Assembly: GCA_964559135.1 (NCBI GenBank)
Contig: CAZLGG010000005.1
Coordinates: forward strand, 11,609-75,608
From: an uncultured Planctomycetia bacterium
Lineage (GTDB): Bacteria > Planctomycetota > GCA-002687715 > DRQF01
Direction: 5' to 3'
DNA length: 64,000 bases
The notes under the pieces are model-generated. The model saw only the letters and a program-made list of their open reading frames with translations, did no database searches and had not been told where the DNA came from. The position numbers and the translations under genes are program-made. Shown here piece after piece: positions 29,227 to 62,339 of the stretch (positions are counted from its first letter, which is position 1; each line of letters opens with the position of its first letter).

Positions 29227-31128
29227 CTACTTGTCGTCTTCCCACTCGTCCCAGTCGTCAGCGGGCTCCCTCACCGACGTCAAGAACGCTGCGCCCGCCG
29301 CGGCACCGACGCCGATCGCCATGGGCATGTAGCCCGTGCAACTGTAGATCTCGGTGGTGAAGGACGTGTCTGACCGACTCATGGCTTCGGTGAATCCGAA
29401 GATGTGGCGCTGAAAGACGTCCGTGGTCGGCAAGAGAGCCAGATCCACGGGAACTTCATCGGGAAGATCGACGCTCTGCAGGATCGGAAGCAGCGTGTCG
29501 ATCGCCATGACCATGAGACGCCCGGTGTCGATGTAGACGACACCCGTGTTGCCGGCCGCGGGATTCGAACGGCGGAAATGGGTCATGGCTTCCACGAGGT
29601 CCGGATTGCCGGCGAGACCGGATCGCTGGTGCGACTTGGACGCCAGGTAATTCTTCAGGGCCTGCGGCGCCAGCCCGATCATCAGGTAGCCGTCATCGAC
29701 CATCCAGGCAGGCTTGATGCCGGGTCCGAAGTCGTCCGAACGGTTGACGAACATACCCGTGTCGAGGTAGTTGATGTCATGCCCCATGAAGCTGAACGAC
29801 CGCATGGCGCCCTCGCGGGGGAGCATGGCGGAAGCCTTGCGAATACAGGAGAAAAACTTGTCCGAGTCCTTCAGCTGCACGGCCACCATCATCTCGGGGA
29901 TGAGGCCGCCGAAGGGTGACGGCGCCATCCAGAACCCCATCTCTTGGCCGATCGACGGCAACAGGTCGTCCATGATCGAAAAGCCGAGCTGATCGGTCAT
30001 GCCCTGAAGCTCTTCGTCGACGTTGGCGGCCATGTCCTTGTCGAAGTCGCGGAGCGCCGCCATGAGGCGGTCGGCGAGGACCGACATGTCGAGACGGAAC
30101 CCCTCCGCCAGAAGGCTGTCCTGAGGAGCCATGTCCAAAACCCGGTACTTGCCGTCGCCCGCGGGGATCGCCCCGTAGATCGTCTTGGACAGCCCGTCGG
30201 GAACACTGATGTGGAATCGCTCGACGATCGCGCGCCCCTCGAAGTTCATGGCGTAGGCCACGCTCTGGAACTCGGTCAAGCCGGTGACGTCCAGAAAGGT
30301 CATCAGCATCCCGAATTCCTGCTCGTCCGCCACCGGAGAGTTCTCGATCATGTGCATCACTTTGCCCAAATTGACGTACATCGAAAACACGCCTTGACGC
30401 ATGGGAGACACCTTGGCCATGGCACTCGTGAACTCGGCGTTGTCGATCAACCCCCCGGACGTGACGCCGGCCTTGACGCGATCAAGCACGCCCGACAAGG
30501 TCGTCTTGTTGGTGCCGAGGACCAAGTGGTTGCCGGCCGTGACGAGGTAGGCGGAGAGCCCGTCCAAATCGAAGGCCAGTCCGTGATTGCCGGCGATCGT
30601 GACTTCGGTGGGAGCGATGCCCATACCCTGCTCGGCAGCGCCGGCAGCCATCTGCGCCAGCTTGCCCGCCAACTCCTTGTTGCTGCCGAGATCGAGGGTG
30701 ATCAGGGCGTCCACGTCCGGAGGTCCGTTCGCATCCTTGATCGCCAGATCGACGATCGTGAAGGTCAGACGTCCTTCGCCGAGGCTCTCCAGGTCGGAGA
30801 GAGAAAGCCCCGTGTTCTGCTCCAGCTCGCCCGCCATCTCCTCGCTCATGGCGTCGAGCATTTCCATGGCGGGTTTGAGGAAAGCCTTCATCTGCGGCTC
30901 TTCCCACAACTGGCTCAGCGCAAGGTTGCGACAGTTCTTGGCGCCGGCGACTCCGTCATAGGACACGTGGAGCAAGCAGTCCGTCGGGAGAGCGGCTTCG
31001 ATGCGGAAGGAACCGGCCTCGGCATGGGTCGCGTCATCCGTGAGAACCCAGGCGCCACCGCCTATGAATAGGGTCAGGAGGGCCGCGGCGGCCAGTGTCA
31101 TTCCCAGGGGGCGAATCGTACGAGTCAT
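29227..31128 (-). CDS. Exported hypothetical protein, DUF3352-like
   Basis: AGGAG SD, signal/TM segment, internal two-fold repeat (LPTDCLL / APQDSLL), C-terminal hydrophobic segment. Confidence 0.65.
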   Translation of the reverse strand: MTRTIRPLGMTLAAAALLTLFIGGGAWVLTDDATHAEAGSFRIEAALPTDCLLHVSYDGVAGAKNCRNLALSQLWEEPQMKAFLKPAMEMLDAMSEEMAGELEQNTGLSLSDLESLGEGRLTFTIVDLAIKDANGPPDVDALITLDLGSNKELAGKLAQMAAGAAEQGMGIAPTEVTIAGNHGLAFDLDGLSAYLVTAGNHLVLGTNKTTLSGVLDRVKAGVTSGGLIDNAEFTSAMAKVSPMRQGVFSMYVNLGKVMHMIENSPVADEQEFGMLMTFLDVTGLTEFQSVAYAMNFEGRAIVERFHISVPDGLSKTIYGAIPAGDGKYRVLDMAPQDSLLAEGFRLDMSVLADRLMAALRDFDKDMAANVDEELQGMTDQLGFSIMDDLLPSIGQEMGFWMAPSPFGGLIPEMMVAVQLKDSDKFFSCIRKASAMLPREGAMRSFSFMGHDINYLDTGMFVNRSDDFGPGIKPAWMVDDGYLMIGLAPQALKNYLASKSHQRSGLAGNPDLVEAMTHFRRSNPAAGNTGVVYIDTGRLMVMAIDTLLPILQSVDLPDEVPVDLALLPTTDVFQRHIFGFTEAMSRSDTSFTTEIYSCTGYMPMAIGVGAAAGAAFLTSVREPADDWDEWEDDK

Positions 31129-31265
31129 GTTTTTTCTCCTCATCGGTTCGGGGGGTCGTTGTTTCTTCGTTCGTGGGATAAGGCCCGGCATTTCCAAACG
31201 GTGACGGGCATCGCCTTTCCCTCGGTATCTGATGCGGTATCGACCGCTCCTCACTGTAAGACGTC

Positions 31266-31775
31266 TCAGCTTCCGAAGTATCTCTGGAAAAATGGCGGAC
31301 CCAAGCTCGTGGCGAAGATTCCCAAGGCCAGAGCGACCGACTGCCGCGCCCGGCGGGGGGTGAGGTCCCTGGGCCCTTTGATGAACCCGAGGACAAGAGT
31401 ACCCAGAATCGCTCCTTGGAGATCGGTGAGGACGTCGAAGACATCCGGGTCCCGTCCTGGTACGAAGGACTGGTGCCACTCGTCGAGGATTCCCCAAAGT
31501 ACGGCCATCACCACGGCGAGTCGAAACGCGAGGGAAAGGCGCCTCCCGACTTGGCGCCACGCCCCCAAAGCGCCCGCCCAGAAAAAGGCGAGCACTGCAT
31601 AAAGCGGGGCATGGAAGAGGTTCCCCATGCCCGGGAATCCTCCTCCCACTCCCTCCCAGGTCCGACTGCTGGACCAGAAGATCATCCCCATCCAAGCCGC
31701 GGCGGCGATCCGCCAGAGCCACTCTCCCGAGAGGAATCGCGCCAGACTCGAAAGAGGAGACCGCCCTTGAACCAT
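31266..31775 (-). CDS. VanZ family membrane protein
   Basis: WMGMIFWSSS, HAPLYAVL, DEWHQSFVPGR..D..D motif. Confidence 0.88.
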   Translation of the reverse strand: MVQGRSPLSSLARFLSGEWLWRIAAAAWMGMIFWSSSRTWEGVGGGFPGMGNLFHAPLYAVLAFFWAGALGAWRQVGRRLSLAFRLAVVMAVLWGILDEWHQSFVPGRDPDVFDVLTDLQGAILGTLVLGFIKGPRDLTPRRARQSVALALGIFATSLGPPFFQRYFGS

Positions 31776-31804: not shown

Positions 31805-32614
31805 TCAAGCCATGAGCGACTGGCGATTCTTCTGGAGCTGCTCCTTCAGGCGCTGAAGAACGTTCGTGTGGATCTGGCAAACCCGCGACTCGGTGAGATC
31901 GAGCACGCGGCCGATCTCCTTCATCGTGAGCCCCTCGTAGTAGTACATGATGACGATCCGCTTCTCTTTCTGAGAGAGATTGCGGGTCACCGCCTCGATC
32001 ACGTCCCGTTGGTTCAACGATTCGACCGGGCTCTCGCTCTTCACGTCCGCGAGGATTTCCGACTTCTCGAGGCTGTGATCGTCGTTGTTCTCATCCCACT
32101 TGTCGGAGAGTGAGTAGATGGTCACGGGCTGGGCGTCCTCGACCATGCGATGGTACTCGCTGAGCGTGCAGTCGATTTCGCGACACATCTCCATGTCCGT
32201 GGGCTCCCGGCCGAAACGGCTTTCGAGAGCGCGGTAGGCCTTGTTGATCTTGTTGGCCTTCAGACGAACGAGACGGGGCACCCAATCCTGGGAACGCAAC
32301 TCATCGAGGATGCTCCCGCGGATGCGCGTCGTGCAGTAGGTCTTGAATTTGATGCCGCGGGAGAGGTCGAATCCGTCGATGGCGTCCATGAGTCCGAAGA
32401 GACCCGCGCTGACCAGATCCTCGAGGTCGATGCTTTTCGGCAATGTCGCCAGGAGACGCTCGCTGATGTAGCGGACCAGGGGGTAGTAGTGCTCGATGAG
32501 CACGTTGCGCAGATTCGGATCTCCCGTGCGCTTGTAGGTCTTCCAAAGGATGTCGAGCTTTTCGGACTCGGCCTTGTTCTTCGCACGGGTGGACTTGACG
32601 GCGACCTGAACCAT
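31805..32614 (-). CDS. fliA: FliA/WhiG family RNA polymerase sigma factor (sigma28)
   Basis: RNVLIEHY, KFKTYCTTRIRGSILDELRSQDWVPR, GREPT, LTESRVCQIH; GGAGGA SD. Confidence 0.92.
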   Translation of the reverse strand: MVQVAVKSTRAKNKAESEKLDILWKTYKRTGDPNLRNVLIEHYYPLVRYISERLLATLPKSIDLEDLVSAGLFGLMDAIDGFDLSRGIKFKTYCTTRIRGSILDELRSQDWVPRLVRLKANKINKAYRALESRFGREPTDMEMCREIDCTLSEYHRMVEDAQPVTIYSLSDKWDENNDDHSLEKSEILADVKSESPVESLNQRDVIEAVTRNLSQKEKRIVIMYYYEGLTMKEIGRVLDLTESRVCQIHTNVLQRLKEQLQKNRQSLMA

Positions 32615-32698
32615 TCTCACTCCTCCACGGTCGGCTTCGTGGGCCGACTCGAAAACGGGGAGGCGCCGCAACGCGGTCCGGTGCCGATTCCGGACACG

Positions 32699-32739
32699 AA
32701 AAAACCGACCCGATGGCTCCCTTGGCAACGTTGGTCGGT
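32699..32739 (-). terminator. Intrinsic terminator in the fliA leader (riboswitch expression platform)
   Basis: Minus strand ACCGACC...GGTCGGT followed by a T run, between the aptamer and the fliA start. Confidence 0.6.
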
Positions 32740-32765
32740 CTTCATGTGCGTCATGCGATTCCCCT

Positions 32766-32860
32766 GGTCTTCGGCAACTGGCTGCCTTTCCGCCGGAACA
32801 GCGGGGAAGGCCCTTTAGTTTTGCGCCCCACCCTTTCGAGTGGTTTGCCCTTTCGGACCC
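32766..32860 (-). ncRNA. c-di-GMP-I (GEMM) riboswitch aptamer
   Basis: Minus strand GGGCAAACCACTC-GAAA-GGGTGGGGCGCAAAACT...GGCAGCCAGTTGCCGAAG matches the GEMM consensus (GNRA-capped P2, CGCAAA junction). P1 GGTC/GACC; G at the Vc2 G20-equivalent position. Confidence 0.9.
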
Positions 32861-32921
32861 GGCCGGTTCGCTGACGCTTTCCGGTCGATGTCCATCAGCC
32901 AACGCGTGGCTGACGGTGGCT

Positions 32922-32949
32922 AACATAGAGAAGGTTCCACCCCCGTCAA
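32922..32949 (-). promoter_or_regulatory. Sigma70-type promoter for the riboswitch-fliA transcript
   Basis: TTGACG-N16-TATGTT with an upstream A-tract (UP element-like), about 55 nt before the aptamer. Confidence 0.6.
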
Positions 32950-33119
32950 CTGTTTTTTTTCGGAATTTGGGGTCCGGGTGTTGAGTCCTACGGCAGAGAA
33001 TCGTCCAAAAACCCCACAAAAGTCCTCCAAATGGCATTTTCTTGCGGATTCGAGGGCATGATGGCTGGGTGAAAAAAAAAACGGATCGACGGAGCTCCAC
33101 GGGTGACGAAACCGGGTTT

Positions 33120-35654
33120 TCAGTGTTTCGGAGCCCCCGGTTTCGGGGCCTTCTTCTCCTTCGAGAGGGCGGACGAAGAGCCCTTCCCGAAGTTCTGCGT
33201 CCAGAACGCTCCCCCCTTGGCCTTGCCGCAGCCGAGATGGGTCCATCCCGCCCCCACGATGTTGCGGTGATGTCCCGAACTGTGCAGCCAACCGCGCAGC
33301 GCACCGGCGGGCGTGGGGGCACCGCGAGCGATATTCTCGGAGACTCCTCCCCCCCATCCCTCCGCCGCCGCGCGCATCGAGGGCGTACGGTGTTCCTTCA
33401 CGGGAGATGCGTGAGCGAAATAGTCGAGGTCCATCATCTCCTGGGAGTGCTTGCGGGCGGCCCGAACCAAAGCCTCGTCGATTTTCACGGGACGCAACCC
33501 CATCATCATGCGATAGAGGTTCGTGAGGCGGTGCAGTTCCCGCTCGTCATCGGTGATCGAACTCGCGATCTCGGCGTTGAAACGAAGGACCTCCGCGGCA
33601 GCCTTCTGCGCGGACGGCTTCAAACCGTGATGCGACACGTCGAGGGCACGATCGAGTTCGTCGAGGAGGCTGTCCGGATCGATGGGCGCGTGGGCGTCGG
33701 CGGGCTGCAGGCCCCGAAGAACCCTCAAGGACTCATGGGCCGCCGCGAGCGACTTCAATTCTCCTTCCAGGTAGGCCGCCGGATGCTCATAGACGTCGCG
33801 GATCTTCTGCACCAGCGCATCCACCTCGGCTTGAACCTCTTTCTGATTCGGTCCGTAGGGGTAGGGATAGCGGACCGGGTCACGAATGAGTGTCAAAGCG
33901 GCCTTGCGCCGCGCTTCCAGCTCGTCGAAGACCTTGGCGCGAGCCGCCGCGATGCTCTGGAAGACCTTGAGCTTGCGCGCCCGCTCGAGTTCCCGCCCGA
34001 AGCGCGCCCTCACGATCTCATCCAGAACGTCTCGGGCCGGAGTCCCCATCGCCCGCAGCTCCAAACAGATCTCCTTGAACCGGCCATCGCTCGCCGTCGA
34101 AGCCTGACGGGCGAGCGCTCTCGCCTGCGAGGCCAATCGTCGGGCCTCGGCCTCCTCGGGGGTCATGAGCCGGCCGTCGAGGAGGACGAATCCGCCGGCG
34201 GGTCGGTCGACGCCCGTCCACAGCGCGAAGAGTTCGTCCGCTCGACCCTTGGATGCCGGATCCCGCGCCGCTTCGCCCAAAGCGGCTTTCGCCCGTTCCG
34301 CGTCCCCCAAGTGATGGGCGGCGAGGGCGAACTGCAGACGTTCCTCTGGGCTCACCGACGCCCAATCGAAAAGGGCGAGCAGACGATCGGCCGGGATGTC
34401 CTTCCAGGCCCACTCCTCCTCGCCGCGCCCGAGCTTGATCTGAACCAATTCCTCGTCGGCGGCCACGCAGCGAGCCGCGAGAGTCCCGATACGCAGGGTC
34501 ACGCCGCGGCGCTTCTCCTCGTTCACGTCGACGATGACCCGAGCCTTGAGGTCTCCCAGAGCCTGGAGGATACGGGCACGTTGCTCCCAGAGCCGGCGCT
34601 TCGCGCCGTCCCCGCCGTTCTCGGCGAGACGCCGAAAAACATCGGCGGCCGCGCGCCACCGACACGAAGCGGCCAGGGCCTCGGCGCGGGACACCGCGGC
34701 CCCCTCGGCCGTCGGGCTCAGGCTCGAACGAGGGCTGGCGGAGTCTTCGCCTGACGCGGTCTTCGGGGCCGTCCCGTCCGACGATGAACGGCGCGGCGGC
34801 AAGGCGGCGAGAGACGCCCAGTCCTGGAGTCGCACCTCGAGCCCCGTCCCCGCGAAGCGTGACGCGACGCGCTGCGCATCCTCGCGGATTCGGTCCCAAT
34901 CCCCCTCTTTACCGAGGCTCTCCCACTTCCGCTCCAAGAGTTCGAGTTCGCGAACGGCTTTGGCCCGCAGGTCCACCTCCAGCTCCAGCAAGTCCAGATT
35001 CCGCGGGGACTCCTCCGAAGCCTTCGAGACGAGCCGCACCGCCTCACCCCAACGCCGTGACGCCTCCAGGGGCCGAATGCGGCTCTGAAGGGCGCGTGTC
35101 GCCGGGTCGAGCGGAGAGCCGCCCTCGCCCGCCGGGACGTCCGCGCTGTGGTTCGTCCCCCTGGAGGCGTCCTCGGCGGGTGCCTTCGCCACCGGCTCGC
35201 CTCGCGAGGACGTGACGTTGGAGGGCGTCTCGTTCTTGAACATGCCCTTGTAGGCCGCGCCGGCCAGGGCCAGGACGGCGGCCCCCAGCAACCAAGGGGA
35301 AACGACCGGTCGACCCCGCCGACCGGATTTCGTCGTCTCCGCCCCATCGACGGCCTCCGACGCCCGAGGACGGCTCCGGTGGAATCGGAGCGATGCCCCG
35401 CCCAGTTCGATCACATCGCCGTCGGTGAGAATCAGTTGCGAAACGTCTGTCCCCCGAACCCGTGTTCCCCCTTCCGAGGCGAGATCCACCACCCGCCAGC
35501 GCCCCCCTCTGTTCTCGACGCGGCAGTGGCGAGGCGAGACTCCAGGGGCGTCCAGCGTGAGATCGCAGTCGGACCCGGACCCAAGGATGGCCTCCGTGTC
35601 GAGGCGAAACCATGCGGACTCGTCTTCCAGATCATCGCGGTGCAGCCAGGCCAT
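33120..35654 (-). CDS. FHA-like domain, TM helix, helical region and C-terminal CAP (SCP/PR-1) domain protein
   Basis: N-terminal LGSGSDCDL..VSPRH..DLASEGGT; TM; C-terminal NLYR..GL, ARKHS, FAH, SENIA, WLHSSGHHRNI, WTQNFG. Start uncertain. Confidence 0.8.
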   Translation of the reverse strand: MAWLHRDDLEDESAWFRLDTEAILGSGSDCDLTLDAPGVSPRHCRVENRGGRWRVVDLASEGGTRVRGTDVSQLILTDGDVIELGGASLRFHRSRPRASEAVDGAETTKSGRRGRPVVSPWLLGAAVLALAGAAYKGMFKNETPSNVTSSRGEPVAKAPAEDASRGTNHSADVPAGEGGSPLDPATRALQSRIRPLEASRRWGEAVRLVSKASEESPRNLDLLELEVDLRAKAVRELELLERKWESLGKEGDWDRIREDAQRVASRFAGTGLEVRLQDWASLAALPPRRSSSDGTAPKTASGEDSASPRSSLSPTAEGAAVSRAEALAASCRWRAAADVFRRLAENGGDGAKRRLWEQRARILQALGDLKARVIVDVNEEKRRGVTLRIGTLAARCVAADEELVQIKLGRGEEEWAWKDIPADRLLALFDWASVSPEERLQFALAAHHLGDAERAKAALGEAARDPASKGRADELFALWTGVDRPAGGFVLLDGRLMTPEEAEARRLASQARALARQASTASDGRFKEICLELRAMGTPARDVLDEIVRARFGRELERARKLKVFQSIAAARAKVFDELEARRKAALTLIRDPVRYPYPYGPNQKEVQAEVDALVQKIRDVYEHPAAYLEGELKSLAAAHESLRVLRGLQPADAHAPIDPDSLLDELDRALDVSHHGLKPSAQKAAAEVLRFNAEIASSITDDERELHRLTNLYRMMMGLRPVKIDEALVRAARKHSQEMMDLDYFAHASPVKEHRTPSMRAAAEGWGGGVSENIARGAPTPAGALRGWLHSSGHHRNIVGAGWTHLGCGKAKGGAFWTQNFGKGSSSALSKEKKAPKPGAPKH

Positions 35655-35682
35655 GGGAATGGGTCTCCGTCTCGAACCGCCA

Positions 35683-35698
35683 TGCAAATCTCGGGCCC
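35683..35698 (-). promoter_or_regulatory. Putative sigma54 (-24/-12) promoter for the FHA-CAP gene
   Basis: Minus strand GGGCCCGAGATTTGCA with exact GG-N10-GC spacing, about 30 nt before the ATG. Confidence 0.5.
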
Positions 35699-35783
35699 GA
35701 TGGTTTCGCCCTCGGAGGCCGAAAACCACGCCGGCCGCCGGATTCGCGTAAAGGAGACCTGACATTCGAGGTCAAGTCGTCGG

Positions 35784-36329: not shown

Positions 36330-36511
36330 CGGTGCTCGAGTCCTCCAGGTTCCTTTCTATATCGACCGAGATGGCCTCGGACCCAAGCCCTCCCGTCCCC
36401 GCTTCATCGCCGCGGCCCGATCCCCCGAGGACCGGCCCGGCAGGAGACACGTTTGCCCTCCGTCCCCGGTATCGCTCAAGATCCTGATTGGAACGCGTTG
36501 AGGAATATGCG

Positions 36512-37525
36512 ATGCCCCAAAGACCCACGGTGGTTCTGGCCCATTACGATAGCGAAATCCTGAGCCGATATCGGGAGACGCTGGAGACGGACGGTTTCCG
36601 CGTCCAGGCCACCAGTTCGGGCCCCGATGTCCTTCGTCGCGTCGAGAAAGACGTCCCCGATGCCGTGGTCATCGAAGCGCTGCTTCAACGCATGAACGGT
36701 CTCACCGTTCTGAAGCGATTGAAGGATTCACGCCCCCATCTGCGCGTCCTCGTCATGATCGATGCGGGCGACACCTACACGGAAAACCGAGCGCTGATCT
36801 GCGGCGCCGACGCCATCTTGCAAAGGGACGAAACGGGGGGCATCCCCGAGGGGGCGCTGGCGGCGAAGCTTCGCGCCCTTTGCCAAGAGGACCGCCTCGA
36901 GGCCCCGGATCATGCCCAGGAAGCGATTCCCGAGGACGATCTCTCCCGTCTGTTGGAAACATCGTCGAAGAATCTCAGGGCGGAAAACCCCATCGTCACT
37001 CACATCACCGACCCGCTGACGGGCCTGTACAACGCGCCCTACATGCAGGTGAAACTCGCGGAAGAGGTGAAGCGCACACGGCGCTTCGGAATCCCTCTCA
37101 CCCTGGTGGAATTGCAGTTGGACGCCCCGGGTGAGATCTCCGACACGGACTCGGAGTGGCGACAAAAACTCAACGAAGTCGCCGGCCTTCTGCTTTGCGA
37201 GTCCCGTGACATCGATGTGTTGTCCAGAATCGACGCAGCCACGTTTCGTCTGCTCCTGCCCCACACGGACCTTGCCGGGGCTCAGGCCATGATGGAGCGC
37301 GTGCTCTCGGGCATCTCGGAGCGCTACGTCTCGTCGCTGGAAGACGGGCAGGGCCTCCGTGCGGTCGCCGGATTGGCCGGATTTGATCCGGAAACCATGC
37401 AGAATCCCGAAGATCTCGTGGAAACCGCGGGGAACGCGGCCCAGTCGGCCTGGCAGGGCGGAACGGGCACCCTCCATGTCTGGACACCCGAGGGACGAGG
37501 GCCCGCTCCCCAAGCCGGTCCCTAA
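36512..37525 (+). CDS. Atypical receiver domain plus degenerate GGDEF domain (probable c-di-GMP receptor)
   Basis: REC fold with E in place of the phospho-acceptor D (VIEALLQRMNG); TDPLTGLYN; active site reads SRIDAATF; RDID I-site intact. Confidence 0.82.
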   Translation: MPQRPTVVLAHYDSEILSRYRETLETDGFRVQATSSGPDVLRRVEKDVPDAVVIEALLQRMNGLTVLKRLKDSRPHLRVLVMIDAGDTYTENRALICGADAILQRDETGGIPEGALAAKLRALCQEDRLEAPDHAQEAIPEDDLSRLLETSSKNLRAENPIVTHITDPLTGLYNAPYMQVKLAEEVKRTRRFGIPLTLVELQLDAPGEISDTDSEWRQKLNEVAGLLLCESRDIDVLSRIDAATFRLLLPHTDLAGAQAMMERVLSGISERYVSSLEDGQGLRAVAGLAGFDPETMQNPEDLVETAGNAAQSAWQGGTGTLHVWTPEGRGPAPQAGP

Positions 37526-37652
37526 CCCTTTGAGTTTGCAGGGGTTTTCAGTCGACAATCATAGAGTTAGCATCCACGCAGTGCTTGCGACCAAGACGGT
37601 GTGCGGACGGTGGACCGAGAATCCGGGATCCAAGGATCCCCAGGAGGCAGTC

Positions 37653-38111
37653 ATGATTGGCGACATCGTCACCTATTCTTCCCGACGAGGCACGGTTTCA
37701 TTCCTCGGCGCCCTCATCCTGGCTCTTTTCATCCTGAACTCGCCGGCCACGGCGCAGAAGGTGAGCGTCAAGGTCCTGGACGCGGCGAAGGTGTACTACC
37801 CCGCCACCATCAAGAAGAAGTCCAAGTTCAAGGCACCCGCGATCCTCTCCACCGCCAAGGTCTTCGGCGCCATCCCCGAGTGGAAGGTCATCAAGAAGAA
37901 GAAGCTCGACAAGAAGGATGCCGAGTACTTCATTCTCCTCAAGGCCGCCAACGACAAGTTCGCGGCGGCCCTGGCCGCCGTTCGAAAGGAAGGCAAGTTC
38001 GACATCGTGGCCGAGGACGGAGCCATCGAGTGCAAGGGATGCGAGGCCGAAGACGTCACGCAGAAGATGATCGATGCGCTTCCCGAGGAGGTCGACAACC
38101 AGGCGTCGTGA
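37653..38111 (+). CDS. Small secreted basic protein, possibly Skp/OmpH-like
   Basis: Signal peptide (..SPATA); C-terminal AVRKEGKFDIV...DVTQKMIDAL resembles the Skp core; AGGAGG SD. Confidence 0.55.
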   Translation: MIGDIVTYSSRRGTVSFLGALILALFILNSPATAQKVSVKVLDAAKVYYPATIKKKSKFKAPAILSTAKVFGAIPEWKVIKKKKLDKKDAEYFILLKAANDKFAAALAAVRKEGKFDIVAEDGAIECKGCEAEDVTQKMIDALPEEVDNQAS

Positions 38112-39445
38112 AGGTGAAGCGCGCCACGGTTTGCTCATTCCTCCTCGCCCTCTGCCTCGCGGTCTCCTGTACCGAAAGCAGCGAGGAATCCTTCTCCCAC
38201 ATCTTCAATGCACCGGTGACGGTTCGAGCCCTCGACCAGTTGGATCTGCGACCGCCGGCGGAAGCCGGCGGGTGGGATTACCCTGATATTGAACTGGTCG
38301 ACGGACGCATCATGCGGATCGTCTGGATGAACAAGGGAGAACCCGCTTCCTACATCCCCTACCTGACCGGACTGAAAGAGGTGGTCGAGAAAAGAGTCGA
38401 GGTGAAGGCCAACCCCGCTCTGCCCCCCCAGCTGCGTCGCGACCCCAACAACGGCGCTCCTCAAATCTTGAAGGATTCCACTCTGGAGCCCTTGGTCATC
38501 ACGGGATCTCTCGAGGACGTCGACGTCGTCACTGACGTTCTCGTGGGGGTTCAAAAGAGTATTCCTCAGATCGAGATCTCCGTGCGCGTGGTCGAGGTCT
38601 TGGAGGCGGACACCCTCAGCTTCGGCATCGACACGTTCTTCCAGTCCGTCGAAAACGACCCCAACTCACCGACGGCGACGTTTTTCAACAAGGCGTCCAC
38701 GATTCTCGGACTGCCGGAGATCCCCGGACAAGGCGCCTCGTTCAACCCGGCGACAGGAACGACGCCCCTCATGATCAACCTGGGGACGATCACGAACGGC
38801 GTCCAGGTCGACTTTCTCATTCGCGCCCTCAAGCTGTTCACCAAGACGAACGTACTTTCCGCCCCACAGATCCGAGTGCTCGACGGCTACTCCGCCGAAA
38901 TCGTCGCCGGCGAGGACATTCCGTTCTTCGAACCGAAGTTCTCGGGGTCGGGCCTCTCGACCATCACCACGTCGTTCAAGCAGGTGGGCGTGAAACTGTT
39001 CATCAATCCCAAGGTCGTGGGGCGGGACCTGGTGAGAATCTCGCTGACGTCCAGCGTCGAGGCCGTGACCCGCGAAAGCACCTTCGTGTCCAACGACGTG
39101 ACCGTCACGAATCCCGTCATCACGACGCGACGGGTGAGTACCTACATGGATGTCTACGACGGCGACACGGTCGTGCTGGGCGGCCTCCTCACTCGCAACA
39201 AGCTGGACAGCGAGAACCGGGTTCCCGTCCTCGGCGAGATCCCGATCTTGAATTTCCTCTTTGCAAGCCACTCCCGCCAGGTCCTACAAAGCAACCTGAT
39301 CTTTTTCGTGACGCCCCGGATCATGGACCCGAGCGCCGAACGTCGGCGTCTCATCACGCCCGTCCTCCCCACCGATGACGAGGACACGGAAACGCCGGTC
39401 GAAGACGGGAAGAAACCCGAGGGCAAAGCGTCCAAGGACGGTTGA
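38108..39445 (+). CDS. Secretin (T2SS GspD/PilQ/RcpA family), short and probably lipidated
   Basis: Lipobox LAVSC; QIEISVRVVEV, VLSAP, GEDIP, VGVKL.I.P, DGDTVVLGGL, VPVLGEIPILNFLF, IFFVTPRI. Confidence 0.88.
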   Translation: MKVKRATVCSFLLALCLAVSCTESSEESFSHIFNAPVTVRALDQLDLRPPAEAGGWDYPDIELVDGRIMRIVWMNKGEPASYIPYLTGLKEVVEKRVEVKANPALPPQLRRDPNNGAPQILKDSTLEPLVITGSLEDVDVVTDVLVGVQKSIPQIEISVRVVEVLEADTLSFGIDTFFQSVENDPNSPTATFFNKASTILGLPEIPGQGASFNPATGTTPLMINLGTITNGVQVDFLIRALKLFTKTNVLSAPQIRVLDGYSAEIVAGEDIPFFEPKFSGSGLSTITTSFKQVGVKLFINPKVVGRDLVRISLTSSVEAVTRESTFVSNDVTVTNPVITTRRVSTYMDVYDGDTVVLGGLLTRNKLDSENRVPVLGEIPILNFLFASHSRQVLQSNLIFFVTPRIMDPSAERRRLITPVLPTDDEDTETPVEDGKKPEGKASKDG

Positions 39446-39462
39446 TTCGGGAGGTCACCCAC

Positions 39463-40656
39463 ATGTCACGGCAGCGACGACGGAATGAAGAAGGCTCGGC
39501 CCTGGTTCTCGCACTCATTGCCGTGTTCCTCCTGCTCATCGTCAGCTTCGAGGTGGCCCATACGTCTCGCATCGAAACCTTCATCACGAAGAACGTCGAA
39601 GTCGATGCCCAACTGGAAGCCGCCTGCCGATCCGGCTTGGAACGCGCCCTCGCCATCCTCCGCGAAGACCGTCAAAACACGGAACTCGACAGCACGAACG
39701 ACTCTTGGTACCCGCTTTTCGTCGACAATGAATTGACTCCCGCCGACGTGGCGTCGGAGGAGTTCCTTCTTGACGATGACGGTGAGGAAGAGGAGCAGGT
39801 CACTCTCTACATCGAGATCTTCGACGAGAACGCGAAGTTCAACGTCTTCCGCTTGGCGACCAGTGATGAGCGGAAGCGTCGGGACGATGTCCGGCGGTTC
39901 TCCGAACTCATCGATCGATTTCGAGACGAATGGAGTGACTTCGACCTTGGCGCCGCGGACGGCCAGGAGATTGGCGACCAGATCCTCTCCTTCATCACCC
40001 GCGACGAGGACAAGCCCTTCGGCACCCTCCCCACGCCCCCCACCAAGAAACCGGGCGGAATGAACGACATCGCGGAGCTGCTCTACATCCCCGGGATCGA
40101 TCCTGCGATCCTTTGGGATCAGACGACGAACGAGGGGGAAACCCTGGTCCCCGGCCTCTTCCGTTTCGTGACCATCTGGACCGACATGCAGGTCAACATC
40201 AACACGGCTCCGCTTCCCGTCCTGTCCGCTCTCTTCGAACCCAAGAACGTCTTCCTCGCCGAACGGATCCTCGACGCCCGCGAGACCGCGGCGGAGGAAC
40301 AGGAGCGAGAATCTCGTTCGCTGATCAATCAGTTCGAAGAGAGCCGGGGCGAGAACGAACCCGATCCCACCGGAGGCGCCCCCTTCAGCCAGATCGCGGA
40401 TCTTCGGGACAAGGTCGAGGGGATCGGCGACGAGGTCTACTCGAAAATCGCTCCATGGATCACCGTCCAAAGCGACGTGTTTTCGATTTTCGTCACCGCG
40501 GAGAAGGGCCTCCTCAGGCGCACCAAGATGTGGGTGATCAAGCGGGGAGAATCCGGCTTCCAGGTCCTCATGGAGCGCCCCGTGAACTTCCCTTACTTCA
40601 TTCCCCCGGACCGTCTTGAAAAAGGTGAGCAGGACGCCGAAGGCCGCTACCAGTAG
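39463..40656 (+). CDS. gspK: Type II secretion minor pseudopilin K-like protein
   Basis: Prepilin site RRRNEEG/SALVLAL, DENAKFNV, ELLYIPGI, VNINTAP, PFSQIADL, VQSDVFSI. Confidence 0.8.
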   Translation: MSRQRRRNEEGSALVLALIAVFLLLIVSFEVAHTSRIETFITKNVEVDAQLEAACRSGLERALAILREDRQNTELDSTNDSWYPLFVDNELTPADVASEEFLLDDDGEEEEQVTLYIEIFDENAKFNVFRLATSDERKRRDDVRRFSELIDRFRDEWSDFDLGAADGQEIGDQILSFITRDEDKPFGTLPTPPTKKPGGMNDIAELLYIPGIDPAILWDQTTNEGETLVPGLFRFVTIWTDMQVNINTAPLPVLSALFEPKNVFLAERILDARETAAEEQERESRSLINQFEESRGENEPDPTGGAPFSQIADLRDKVEGIGDEVYSKIAPWITVQSDVFSIFVTAEKGLLRRTKMWVIKRGESGFQVLMERPVNFPYFIPPDRLEKGEQDAEGRYQ

Positions 40657-55386: not shown

Positions 55387-57807
55387 CTATCGCGCCGTGA
55401 AGTACCCGAAGATCTCGATGTCCGCGGCGGAGGAGTTCAGGATCTCGGCGTAGGAGGATCTCTCGTCCCCTGACTTCAGGACCAGTTCACCGTCCCACCT
55501 CGCGGTCGTGCGCTCGGGCAACCTCTTCAGCCGAACGATCGTCTTCCCTCCGAGGCGGAGAGTGAATCCTCCGGGACCGTTGCTGTCCCCGGCTGTCGTC
55601 GCCGTGTATTCGACCCGCGTGACGACCCAGACCTGGCCCCATGGGATCAGTCCTCCTTCGAGGTAGGCGCGAGAACGCTCCTTGATCCCGATGACCCCCT
55701 CCGTCTCGAAGGGCGCCTGCACGAGGTCGTCCAGATAGGCGTTCTTCGAACCGTCGAGGAAGACCCGCCGGGGGTTGCCGCCGCCGGCGCCGCCGCGCAT
55801 TCGAATCCGGACCACCGGAGTGCGCATCTCCTTGTTGGGGTCGCGGAGACCCCGCATGATTCTCTGCAGCAGACGGACGTCGGTGATCACCTTCCAGGTG
55901 AACGCAAGGCCCTCATTCGGCCGCGCGCCGAGGATCCTCATGATCGTCCAACGATCGACATCGCGATCGAGGGAGTGGATCAGCAGGAGGTTTCCCGCCG
56001 CGACGTCGAGCATCGTCTTGGCGGAGAGACCTGCGAGGTCCTCGGGGCTCCAGGACTCCAGATTCGGCCGTGAGCCGAGATTCCACCCCTGACTCCTGTC
56101 GTCCGTCACAGTTTGAAGACGCAGCCGTCCGCCCCAGTCCGCGAAGTCCCGATCCGCAGACGGATCCGGGGCCGACGGTGGGCGCGGTTTCGTGAAGTCG
56201 AACGCCGAGAATTCACTCGCCATGTTGACGTCGGAGGTGAATCCCTGTGCATGGCGCCGGGTGAGCGCGACCCCGATGCGCTTCTCGCGCGCCTCTTCCC
56301 GAAAAAAGTCGCGGATGCGGGCCACTTCTTCGAAAAGAGCCTTGCGCTCGTCCGCATAGCGACGGCGCTTCGCCTCCTTCCACGGGTCGCTGTCAAAGGC
56401 GTGCATGTCCAACAGGAAGCCCTTCTCGACCCGGGTCATCCTCCGGGTGTCATCGAAAACGGGACCGGAGGAGTTCCAGACGTAGGCGAGGACCGCATCG
56501 TTCTTCTGCCAGTCTCCGCCTGCTTCCTTCCTGTCCAGGATCGAGCAGAGCGCATAGCCGCCGTCTCGAGTCTTCAAGACGAAGACGTCGGTCCACGCCT
56601 CACGGTCGTCGCAGTGGATGCTCCGGTTCGAGCCCAATCGCGCCTCCTCGACGGAAAGAACGGCTCTGCGGAAGCAGTCGACGGAAGGACCCTCGCCCAG
56701 GTCGGGGAGATGGGGGAACCCGGCAACGCCGTCCGGCGCCGAGAATCTGATGCTGCTGATGCCTCCCGCGCAGGTTCGGAACCACAGATCGGCCTCCTCC
56801 TCGGGCACGTGAGCGCCCCGCGCGAAGGACCAACCCTGTCGGTAATGGAGGGTGAAGGTCCCCTCCCGGAGGACGCCTGGATCGGACGCCTTCGTGTCGG
56901 CCACGGGGAGGGTCTCTCGTGGTCGAGGTGGAGTGAGATCCTCCGACGGAGGGGCGGCATCGGCGCGCCCGGGTGACGACATCCGGGGCGCGGGTCGCGT
57001 CACGACGTCGGCGGCCCCGACCGTCGTGGTCAGAGCGGAGAGTTCGTCATCCTCGGCATCGCCCCCGAGGAATCCGTCCGCCACCGAAGCCACGCCCACC
57101 ACCACGACGAGAGCCGCGACAACCACACCCGGAATGACCCAGGCCGTCCCGACGGTCGCCGTCACGCCCGCGGCGACCGCCGCGGGGGCCGTGGAAGCCG
57201 CTTGGGCCAGCACTGCCGAACGGACGCTCTCCATTCCTCCGCTCTTGAAGGGAACCAACACCGCGGGCATGGCCGCGCCGGCGGGCAGGGCCTTTCTCAG
57301 CAGCGCCAGCCCGCGATGGAGACGGGTGCGTACGGCTCCCGGCGTCATTTCCAGTCGCCTTGCGATCTCGGCCGGTGCAACGTTCTCCTCGAAAACGATC
57401 TCGATCACTTCACGGTAAGCGTTCGGAAGGCCCGCGATGGCGGAACGCAGCGTGGAGTTGCGCTCGTTGTTCTCGGCGTTCTCGTCCGGCCGGGTCACCG
57501 CCCTTTCCGGCAAGCGCTCCGGTTGAGGTCGGCGGCGCTCCCGACGCGCACGATGACGCGCTTCCCGTCGGAGAATCCCCATCAGCCATGGGGAAGCGGA
57601 GCGACGCGGATTCCATCGCTTCAAGGCGTGCATGATCGCCAAGAACGTGTCCTGAACGAGATCCTCGGCCTGCTGCGCATTCGTCGTGAGATGCAGGGCG
57701 ACCTCGAACAGGGAGGGTGCCGCCTCGTCGAACAATTTGGCCAGGTCCTCGGGAAGACCGGTCTCCCGGTAACGTTTCATCAGTGCGTGAGTGGTTTCTT
57801 CTCTCAT
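55387..57807 (-). CDS. ECF sigma factor fused to a TM helix and a large extracytoplasmic C-terminal extension
   Basis: Sigma2 (AEDLVQDTF, WLMGI), sigma4 (LPNAYRE, EIA..L..GAVRTRLHRG), Ala/Val-rich TM, about 500-aa tail. Start is 57807 or 57870. Confidence 0.87.
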   Translation of the reverse strand: MREETTHALMKRYRETGLPEDLAKLFDEAAPSLFEVALHLTTNAQQAEDLVQDTFLAIMHALKRWNPRRSASPWLMGILRREARHRARRERRRPQPERLPERAVTRPDENAENNERNSTLRSAIAGLPNAYREVIEIVFEENVAPAEIARRLEMTPGAVRTRLHRGLALLRKALPAGAAMPAVLVPFKSGGMESVRSAVLAQAASTAPAAVAAGVTATVGTAWVIPGVVVAALVVVVGVASVADGFLGGDAEDDELSALTTTVGAADVVTRPAPRMSSPGRADAAPPSEDLTPPRPRETLPVADTKASDPGVLREGTFTLHYRQGWSFARGAHVPEEEADLWFRTCAGGISSIRFSAPDGVAGFPHLPDLGEGPSVDCFRRAVLSVEEARLGSNRSIHCDDREAWTDVFVLKTRDGGYALCSILDRKEAGGDWQKNDAVLAYVWNSSGPVFDDTRRMTRVEKGFLLDMHAFDSDPWKEAKRRRYADERKALFEEVARIRDFFREEAREKRIGVALTRRHAQGFTSDVNMASEFSAFDFTKPRPPSAPDPSADRDFADWGGRLRLQTVTDDRSQGWNLGSRPNLESWSPEDLAGLSAKTMLDVAAGNLLLIHSLDRDVDRWTIMRILGARPNEGLAFTWKVITDVRLLQRIMRGLRDPNKEMRTPVVRIRMRGGAGGGNPRRVFLDGSKNAYLDDLVQAPFETEGVIGIKERSRAYLEGGLIPWGQVWVVTRVEYTATTAGDSNGPGGFTLRLGGKTIVRLKRLPERTTARWDGELVLKSGDERSSYAEILNSSAADIEIFGYFTAR

Positions 57808-57962
57808 AGTGCAGTTCTTCTGCATGAGATGACCAACTGTTACAGCCTCATCGAAAAAAGTTGCATCCATGGCGACGAAAGCGATCCTCGCATGTCGAGG
57901 ACGTCTTTCGGAAATGTTCCAGGACTCTCACGGAATGGTCGGCATGATCGAGGAGAAGGCCG

Positions 57963-62120: not shown

Positions 62121-62205
62121 GGAGGGTTGGCAGAGTGGTCGAATGCGGCGGTCTTGAAAACCGTTGTCGCGCGAGCGACCGGGGGTTCGAATCCCTCACC
62201 CTCCG
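62121..62205 (+). tRNA. tRNA-Ser(TGA), CCA not encoded
   Basis: GGAGGGT/ACCCTCC acceptor stem, G73, anticodon loop CT-TGA-AA, long variable arm, GGTTCGAATCC. Confidence 0.96.
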
Positions 62206-62249: not shown

Positions 62250-62339
62250 GGAGAGATGGCAGAGTGGTCGAATGCGCCCGCTTGCTAAGCGGGTGGGGGA
62301 TCACAAGTCCCCCCCCGGGTTCGAATCCCGGTCTCTCCG
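62250..62339 (+). tRNA. tRNA-Ser(GCT), CCA not encoded
   Basis: GGAGAGA/TCTCTCC acceptor stem, G73, CCCGC-TT-GCT-AA-GCGGG, long variable arm, GGTTCGAATCC. Confidence 0.96.

Follow-up and report, generated by a model that had tools for sequence, protein, structure and literature searches.

The stretch analysed here, 64,000 nucleotides (nt) of DNA from an uncultured Planctomycetia bacterium (GenBank assembly GCA_964559135.1, contig CAZLGG010000005.1; hereafter the window), carries on its minus strand an aptamer for cyclic di-GMP (c-di-GMP), a second messenger, in the leader of P0001, a gene encoding a sigma factor of the FliA/WhiG family. On balance we favour the reading that a canonical c-di-GMP-I riboswitch controls in cis an orphan, WhiG-like sigma gene, with the OFF and self-activation scheme proposed below, and we would place this reading somewhat above an even chance. 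Much of the phylum, flagella-less genomes included, retains this pairing of aptamer and sigma gene. An initial annotation, made from the letters of the sequence alone, had listed a promoter, an aptamer, a hairpin with a T run, a Shine-Dalgarno sequence and the sigma gene in this order on the minus strand, and the order is borne out, with every element at or near the place given to it. The elements of the locus, listed from the promoters to the gene, are as follows.

32984-32957, minus: sigma-28/WhiG-class promoter-like motif, TCAA (32984-32981), 16-nt spacer and TCCGAAAA (32964-32957)
32949-32922, minus: sigma-70-like promoter, TTGACG-16 nt-TATGTT, from a promoter scan
32895-32913, minus: 5'-terminal hairpin TCAGCCA/TGGCTGA, in minimum-energy and centroid folds
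32868-32877, minus: 5' strand of the closing helix P0, GCGTCAGCGA, partner 32758-32748, from folds
32769-32858, minus: c-di-GMP-I aptamer, 71.4 bits to RF01051 and 62.3 bits to RF03167
32746-32765, minus: G/A-rich linker, which is the 3' strand of P0 and has 32675-32656 as alternative partner
32699-32745, minus: terminator-like hairpin with an A-rich extension, a 6-bp G+C stem, a 22-nt loop and T6
32656-32675, minus: C/U-rich element with 3' end CCTCCCC, anti-Shine-Dalgarno-like and complementary to the linker
32630-32648, minus: hairpin GTCGGC/GCCGAC immediately 5' of the ribosome-binding site, read from the sequence
32620-32626, minus: Shine-Dalgarno sequence GGAGGAG, from the sequence
31805-32614, minus: P0001, FliA/WhiG-family sigma gene of 269 amino acids (aa), ATG at 32614 and stop at 31805

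Aptamer class and the sigma factor it precedes

The covariance search with RF01051 that the initial annotation had named as a check matched the window over the full model (positions 1-87) with 71.4 bits, the gathering score being 35. The aptamer had been placed at 32860-32766, and the RF01051/RF03167 match covers 32858-32769, on the sense strand and 155 nt 5' of the window's ATG; no other c-di-GMP-I match is present in the genome (4.26 Mb, 92% complete). When the window is run through cmscan, the clan member retained as best is RF03167 (c-di-GMP-I-GGC, gathering score 59), with 62.3 bits, because clan ranking goes by E-value, which puts it ahead of the higher bit score of RF01051.

Like Vc2 and the canonical GEMM-I aptamer, the window aptamer has P1, here formed by GGTC (32859-32856) and GACC (32769-32766), a P2 capped by a GAAA tetraloop, P3, and the G/A/C set of contact bases, found at G 32849, A 32822 and C 32774. 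These we take to be G20, A47 and C92 in Vc2 numbering, the canonical set for c-di-GMP. To follow these positions through the phylum, 49 of 71 planctomycete aptamers were aligned, near-duplicates and those with long P3 inserts being left out. At the base 5' of the GC with which P2 begins, the window has G, as had been claimed for the G20 equivalent, and so do 49/49 aligned relatives; the A column (CGC-A-AA) is likewise invariant (49/49), the C preceding the 3' strand of P1 is kept in at least 90% of them, and 13 of the 19 predicted aptamer pairs show compensatory double changes. The name GGC of RF03167 presumably refers to a G that replaces the intercalating A (consensus CGC-G-AA), and cyclic AMP-GMP (c-AMP-GMP) switches (GEMM-Ib) have A at the G20-equivalent position. 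The notion that the aptamer is a specificity variant, of the GGC class or sensing c-AMP-GMP, and so does not sense c-di-GMP is very improbable: it is favoured by the cmscan ranking, against which RF01051 gives the higher bit score and the window and all 49 relatives carry neither the G of the GGC column nor the A of the c-AMP-GMP type, and both identities were rejected. By its sequence and covariation, with G/A/C at the contact positions, the window aptamer is a canonical c-di-GMP-I riboswitch (RF01051).

Some relatives depart from this pattern (loci, genomes and families are given by our L, G and f numbers where they need to be told apart). The aptamers of L017, L051 and L062 have U at the C92-equivalent column (…UAUCG, …UGUCG), and those of L079, L080, L082 and L083 have GCACG in that region and lower scores of 52-57 bits; both kinds are possible specificity or affinity variants.

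P0001 scores 253.9 bits against TIGR02479 (FliA_WhiG), passing the cut-off of 189.6, and has Sigma70_r2, r3 and r4 in Pfam. The single model that it fits best is the WhiG equivalog NF004935, at 283.5 bits and under that model's cut-off of 343. Among solved structures, it matches the sigma chains of 6PFV (218.8 bits) and 6PFJ (215.6 bits), which are crystals of RsiG-WhiG-c-di-GMP (PMC7005675), and E. coli FliA at 160.5 bits. By these comparisons the riboswitch-linked sigma is more WhiG-like than FliA-like.

One further gene in the genome exceeds the TIGR02479 cut-off. This gene, P0002 (252 aa, 240.9 bits, 34% identical to P0001), shows a narrower gap between the two structures (154.4 bits to WhiG versus 140.0 to FliA) and lies directly 3' of fliP, fliR, flhB, flhA and a 110-aa frame in a flagellar export cluster (G000 contig C10 26697-29848; L094:5356-11848). 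Since there are two FliA-family genes and P0002 is the one in the flagellar cluster, the riboswitch appears to control the orphan paralogue. The earlier proposal that c-di-GMP gates the sigma28 gene itself thus stands insofar as a canonical aptamer lies in the leader of a FliA/WhiG-family gene, and fails insofar as a second member of that family sits in the flagellar cluster. The identity of P0001 as the flagellar sigma-28, FliA proper, was rejected for its lack of flagellar neighbours, the place of P0002 in the cluster, and the presence of the cassette in aflagellate genomes. Elsewhere the genome encodes three flagellins, one flagellin-like hook-associated gene and FlhA; of FlgM there is only a sub-threshold FlgM-like frame (14 bits), away from P0001. 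As an observation apart, P0002 is fast-evolving, with four planctomycete relatives found by pattern search at 93, 66, 51 and 43% identity.

Conservation of the pairing in and beyond flagellate genomes

Relatives of P0001 were taken from contigs of one genome per species, giving 80 loci, of which nearly all bear Planctomycetota or the name of one of its classes in their titles. Conservation upstream of orthologues, another check named at the outset, is found in 70 of the 80, where the P0001 orthologue is closely preceded, on the sense strand, by an aptamer passing Rfam gathering thresholds (16, 20, 16 and 18 in successive batches of 20 loci). Between the end of the aptamer and the codon 1 equivalent lie 40 to 656 nt across the relatives, with a median of 178. 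Among the ten aptamer-negative loci, L053 and L058 have just 257 and 27 nt of upstream DNA, and L063 has a sub-threshold match of 31.2 bits.

A tree of the sigma factors was built with IQ-TREE (66 rows, LG+G4, quick search, support by the SH-like approximate likelihood-ratio test, SH-aLRT, only). Its rows are P0001, P0002, the four P0002 relatives and, hand-selected within each class, 20 of 39 cluster-type, 20 of 31 riboswitch-linked and 20 of 57 other matches; its root is arbitrary because the P0002 type serves as outgroup. All 21 riboswitch-linked sigmas fall into a single clade of 30 rows (SH-aLRT 97), and 0/21 of the flagellar-cluster-type rows lie inside it. Three more rows of that clade were found to be aptamer-positive, which brings the count to 24 of 30 and leaves six without an aptamer. 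At loci of the P0002 type, the cluster paralogue, an aptamer was found in 0/5. Because 70 of 80 loci keep the aptamer and the riboswitch-linked sigmas form one clade, the sequence comparisons support selection on the linkage of aptamer and sigma gene.

The phylum was also scanned through 151 planctomycete genomes at least 90% complete, the source genome included. RF01051 has a match in 70 of these, mostly in single copy (5-27 copies in one family), a P0001-like sigma at E up to 1e-60 occurs in 118 (127 matches), and FlhA occurs in 90. Cross-tabulating the listed matches yields lower bounds, as 64 riboswitch matches stand outside it: at least 31 sigma matches have a same-strand aptamer within 800 nt upstream, and at least 39 sigma matches without an aptamer share their strand with flhA at a distance of 0.3-3.4 kb. 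Among the 31 riboswitch-linked cases listed, FlhA is found in 19 genomes and not in 12. The latter 12 are 90-94% complete and come from six families, and in them FlhB and flagellin are each found in 0/12, as against both in 3/3 control genomes. As 12 genomes without FlhA, FlhB and flagellin retain the cassette, its role cannot be confined to flagella. The cassettes of G095 and G126 sit on the same strand as flhA, 5.3 and 6.3 kb upstream of it. FlhA is present in four of the five genomes of loci titled Isosphaeraceae or Singulisphaera, which hence provide no test of aflagellate retention.

The scan brought several observations beside the pairing itself. The seven genomes of family f29 (G031, G054, G073, G090, G106, G121, G135) hold 5-27 c-di-GMP-I matches each, and the search for P0001-like sigmas at E up to 1e-60 found none in them. 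In one f29 member, the complete genome G106, the FlhA match at C1:618439-620040 has 17 stop codons (10 TGA, 1 TAG, 6 TAA) and by its sequence looks like a decayed flagellar gene. Other genomes (G009, G061, G078, G040, G094, G110 and others) have a single c-di-GMP-I riboswitch away from the sigma gene. In such families the aptamer may control Tad pili, because the Blastopirellula GEMM example in the supplement of PMC1950547 precedes flp-cpaA. A second FliA-like sigma, at which no riboswitch was detected, occurs in G074, G091, G122, G119, G133, G147 and G150 and forms a tree group of its own (7 rows, support 89); G074, G119, G122, G133 and G150 are without the three flagellar markers, and G091 and G147 are without a listed FlhA match only.

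Promoters, expression platform and direction of control

Between 31500 and 33400 the TTGACG-16 nt-TATGTT site is the sole promoter-like site (shuffle mean 0.3), and its TTGAC(A/G) is retained in the seven closest loci listed. The A-tract that the initial annotation had set before this promoter exists as letters, and these letters are really the 3' part of TCCGAAAA in the sigma-28/WhiG-class motif. In the form CTCAA(C/A)-N16/17-(T/A)CCGAAAA, with spacers of varying sequence, the motif stands upstream of the cassette in the window, L005, L008, L009, L010, L014 and L028. When the -10 is slightly relaxed, it is found within 250 nt upstream of the aptamer on the sense strand in 26 of the 70 loci, where a background of 0.0084 per 250 nt predicts about 0.6; antisense matches number 1. 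In the source genome, T(C/A)AA-N15-(G/T)CCGA(A/T) precedes the C46 flagellin, fliD, the C103 flagellin and the weak FlgM-like frame, and of the 30 matches in the whole genome the interpretable ones are flagellin, FliD and that frame only (Pfam, 8 downstream frames). The aflagellate families f43, f24 and f67 have a sigma-70-like TTGCC-N-TA(A/G)TCT promoter instead of the sigma-28-class motif.

The two sets of sites differ in their spacers. Upstream of cassettes (the window, the 70 loci and three further genomes), 22 of 29 spacers are 16 nt long, four are 15 nt and three are 17 nt, whereas at flagellar genes the spacer is 15 nt in 7/7 matches, four in the source genome and three in two of the ten flagellin upstream regions from elsewhere; the background spacer distribution of the motif is flat. 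According to the figure 2 legend of PMC7005675, WhiG targets have a 16-nt spacer and true flagellar sigmas 15 nt, so that the 16-nt spacer before the planctomycete cassette resembles WhiG targets. This pattern suggests self-transcription of the riboswitch-controlled sigma, where the sigma that reads the motif may be P0001 or its paralogue.

Downstream of the aptamer, the hairpin and T run claimed at 32739-32699 are present. CCGACC (32738-32733) pairs with GGTCGG (32710-32705) ahead of T6 (32704-32699), with an A-rich 5' extension, and the hairpin appears in minimum-energy folds of the leader; a simple terminator scan missed it because its loop is 22 nt long. Runs of at least six T are rare, numbering 13 over both strands of the window and 0.17 per kb in the genome. 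A hairpin with U6-7 stands 56-72 nt 3' of the aptamer in 10 of the 70 loci, with stem sequences that differ, and the count rises to 13 if U4 is allowed. This keeping of place while the stem changes points to a selected terminator within the leader. In the terminator region, CGGTTTTTT is identical in all eight aligned sequences. Some 85 nt of further structured leader separate T6 from GGAGGAG, and at the place of the hairpin before the ribosome-binding site L008, L009, L014 and L010 have hairpins of different sequence, as relatives also do at the position of the 5'-terminal hairpin (32895-32913). Around the aptamer, the 5' flank and the linker form a predicted duplex of -25.7 kcal/mol in the window and of -17 to -29 kcal/mol in six of the eight sequences of its clade, and a P0-type closing helix of the same two segments appears in free folds of L005, L007, L010 and L028.

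How such a leader could work can be read in a distant aflagellate clade (G070, G087, G104), where the closing strand of the aptamer has its complement in the 5' half of a strong terminator, with duplexes of -21 to -23 kcal/mol that at most 3/300 shuffles equalled. Because the aptamer-closing strand is here the antiterminator strand, this amounts to a classical OFF design. The same test was borderline in G051 and gave nothing in G150. In the window's own clade it is the linker that has an alternative partner, the C/U-rich element after the terminator (32656-32675), at -22.2 kcal/mol in the window with 6.3% of shuffles as good. The linker-C/U duplexes of the relatives are:

L009: -25.5 kcal/mol, 0/300 shuffles as good
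L010: -31.3 kcal/mol, 3% of shuffles as good
L005: -23.9 kcal/mol, 5% of shuffles as good
L014: -20.9 kcal/mol, 7% of shuffles as good
L008: -20.4 kcal/mol, 18% of shuffles as good
L028: -25.1 kcal/mol, 25% of shuffles as good
L007: -24.4 kcal/mol, 37% of shuffles as good

Between L008 and L009 the helix shows a compensatory change from U-A to C-G. A four-element scheme, in which flank-linker pairing alternates with linker-C/U pairing and the C/U element can otherwise pair with the ribosome site, would in this model again give OFF.

A number of results weigh against the favoured reading. The window terminator is weak (6-bp core, 22-nt loop) and forms in all three folding conditions applied to the window, and in 7/8 sequences it forms when the 5' strand of P1 is blocked. 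Across the eight sequences of the window clade, we found no structure that could not coexist with the terminator: duplexes of the 5' flank with the terminator's 5' half, of the linker with that half, and of any upstream segment with either terminator half were no better than shuffles. Pairing of the C/U element with the ribosome site was no better either, 23-82% of shuffles being as good, and it is for this reason that the OFF direction is something we infer. Seven orthologous loci lack any aptamer signal at E up to 1 and are informative losses, and the upstream motif may have a reader other than P0001.

Taking both sides together, we think it reasonably likely that c-di-GMP acts as an OFF switch on the sigma; in the window clade, the OFF logic can be read only as a possible ribosome-site switch. 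The best of the alternatives, which we consider unlikely while giving it real weight, is that control acts on translation or RNA stability only and that the hairpin with T6 is a constitutive attenuator or stabiliser indifferent to the ligand. The failure of the antiterminator search in the window clade would agree with this, as would the complementarity of the linker to the anti-Shine-Dalgarno-like CUCCC element with its compensatory change in L008/L009, the 57 of 70 loci without a hairpin-U-run of at least four U, and an aptamer-start distance of just 40-58 nt in some loci. Against it stand the ten loci in which a hairpin with U6-7 holds its place after the aptamer as the stem changes, and the pairing of the anti-Shine-Dalgarno-like element with the ribosome site, which does not exceed shuffles.

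We find it rather improbable that the riboswitch is an ON switch by which c-di-GMP raises the sigma and so drives a sessile or attachment programme. No detectable alternative pairing couples the terminator to the aptamer in the window clade, so the structure there leaves the direction unfixed, the cassette is retained by the 12 flagella-less genomes, in which it is not obvious what a "motility off" logic would act on, and ON-type c-di-GMP-I switches, with terminators overlapping P2, are described by Weinberg and colleagues (2007, PMC1950547). Here, however, the terminator is clear of the aptamer's 3' side, unlike in the ON types of that paper, the closing strand of G070, G087 and G104 follows OFF logic, and the two known c-di-GMP controls of this sigma family, as described in PMC5386303 and PMC7005675, are both repressive.

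In the favoured reading, with c-di-GMP as an OFF signal, transcripts would start at the sigma-70-like promoter and probably also at the overlapping sigma-28/WhiG-class promoter, read by P0001 or its paralogue. Binding of c-di-GMP would lock the aptamer together with the long closing helix of 5' flank and linker, and sigma expression would fall through termination at the hairpin with T6, through a freed C/U-rich element that covers the ribosome-binding site, or through both. At low c-di-GMP the linker would pair with the C/U-rich element, leaving the ribosome site open, and the sigma would accumulate and reinforce its own transcription. The outcome would be a self-amplifying switch with c-di-GMP as its brake, governing a dispersal or developmental programme that includes flagellar genes without being exclusive to them.

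Gene neighbourhood, precedents and meaning

The initial annotation had seen no flagellar or anti-sigma genes nearby, which agrees with the profile scan: none of these families was found in the 28 neighbouring frames examined from 16 to 58 kb of the window. Two genes follow P0001:

31266-31775, minus: gene for a VanZ-family membrane protein, 30 nt 3' of the sigma gene
From the VanZ-family gene to 29227, minus: gene for a product of about 690 aa that is assigned to no family

These are probably co-transcribed with the sigma, and 14-15 of the 80 loci keep both downstream of the sigma gene; the 831-aa mechanical frame in 29227-31775 (minus) is really these two genes. Upstream of the cassette, an FHA plus CAP-domain gene (33120-35765) is conserved in 16 loci. 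Farther away, 36488-40656 (plus) holds a response-regulator-GGDEF gene that is followed directly by genes for a secretin and a type II secretion protein K-like product. The GGDEF gene lies 3.5 kb from the cassette on the opposite strand, and such a gene is also found near the sigma gene in L011, L020 and L021. The window further contains, at 55387-57870 (minus), an 827-aa frame whose N-terminal sigma domain is of the extracytoplasmic function (ECF) type (regions 2 and 4) and whose long extension falls in no family, and tandem tRNA genes with long variable arms at 62121-62205 and 62250-62339 (plus; 59.2 and 59.8 bits).

Two precedents that the initial annotation had named are found in the literature. 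The riboswitch Cd1 stands before the C. difficile flgB operon, which contains sigD, and c-di-GMP binding terminates transcription there and lowers production of a FliA-family sigma (PMC5386303). The planctomycete leader has the same aptamer class in a 5' leader with a terminator following. It differs from Cd1 in having the sigma gene as the first and nearest gene, where sigD is one of many in a long flagellar operon, and in being preceded by a sigma-28-class promoter, where PMC5386303 gives a sigma-A promoter for Cd1. Unlike that of Cd1, the planctomycete sigma lies apart from the flagellar cluster, has a paralogue within it, and is kept in flagella-less genomes. In Streptomyces, RsiG with c-di-GMP sequesters WhiG (PMC7005675), and the likeness would be that c-di-GMP restrains a WhiG-type sigma that has left its flagellar role. 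The Streptomyces control is unlike ours in being post-translational and exerted by a protein anti-sigma, as opposed to an RNA aptamer in the sigma's own mRNA. By this analogy the arrangement is the RNA mechanism of Cd1 joined to the target type of RsiG-WhiG.

That GEMM is common in "Plantomycetes" was reported in 2007 (PMC1950547). The gene lists of that paper, as far as consulted, name no FliA/WhiG sigma, Table 2 being without sigma factors and the supplement naming only COG1595. In the literature searched we found no paper that links a c-di-GMP riboswitch to planctomycete fliA/whiG, and supplements of riboswitch surveys may list the association. What we describe is a known riboswitch class, here wired to a WhiG-like sigma, for which no description was found in print.

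A broader picture can be drawn tentatively, and as a whole we hold it to be doubtful: much of Planctomycetota would carry a self-amplifying developmental switch, in which a WhiG-like sigma acts on its own promoter with a 16-nt spacer under a riboswitch brake, the FliA of the flagellar cluster reads late flagellar promoters with 15-nt spacers, and the module is kept for another programme after flagellar loss. Were this true, the module would serve budding or dispersal, pili or the surface in flagella-less lineages, and c-di-GMP would have come to control WhiG-type sigmas on two occasions, by way of a protein (RsiG) in one and of RNA in the other.

Planctomycete cells alternate between swimming and sessile forms, and to our knowledge regulation in the phylum is almost unstudied. 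The messenger c-di-GMP usually reaches transcription via proteins such as FleQ, VpsT, BldD and RsiG; here it would act on an alternative sigma directly, through the sigma's own mRNA. Probably, then, c-di-GMP exerts direct control over a lifestyle regulator at the level of RNA, and the module of aptamer and sigma is probably self-activating and outlasts the flagellum. Because there is mostly a single aptamer match per genome and at least 31 of them lie upstream of the sigma, the cassette would offer one defined entry point to the c-di-GMP regulon, and its retention in aflagellate genomes, the resemblance of its sigma to WhiG and the split between 16-nt and 15-nt spacers supply hypotheses on how flagellar sigma factors may be re-used for development.

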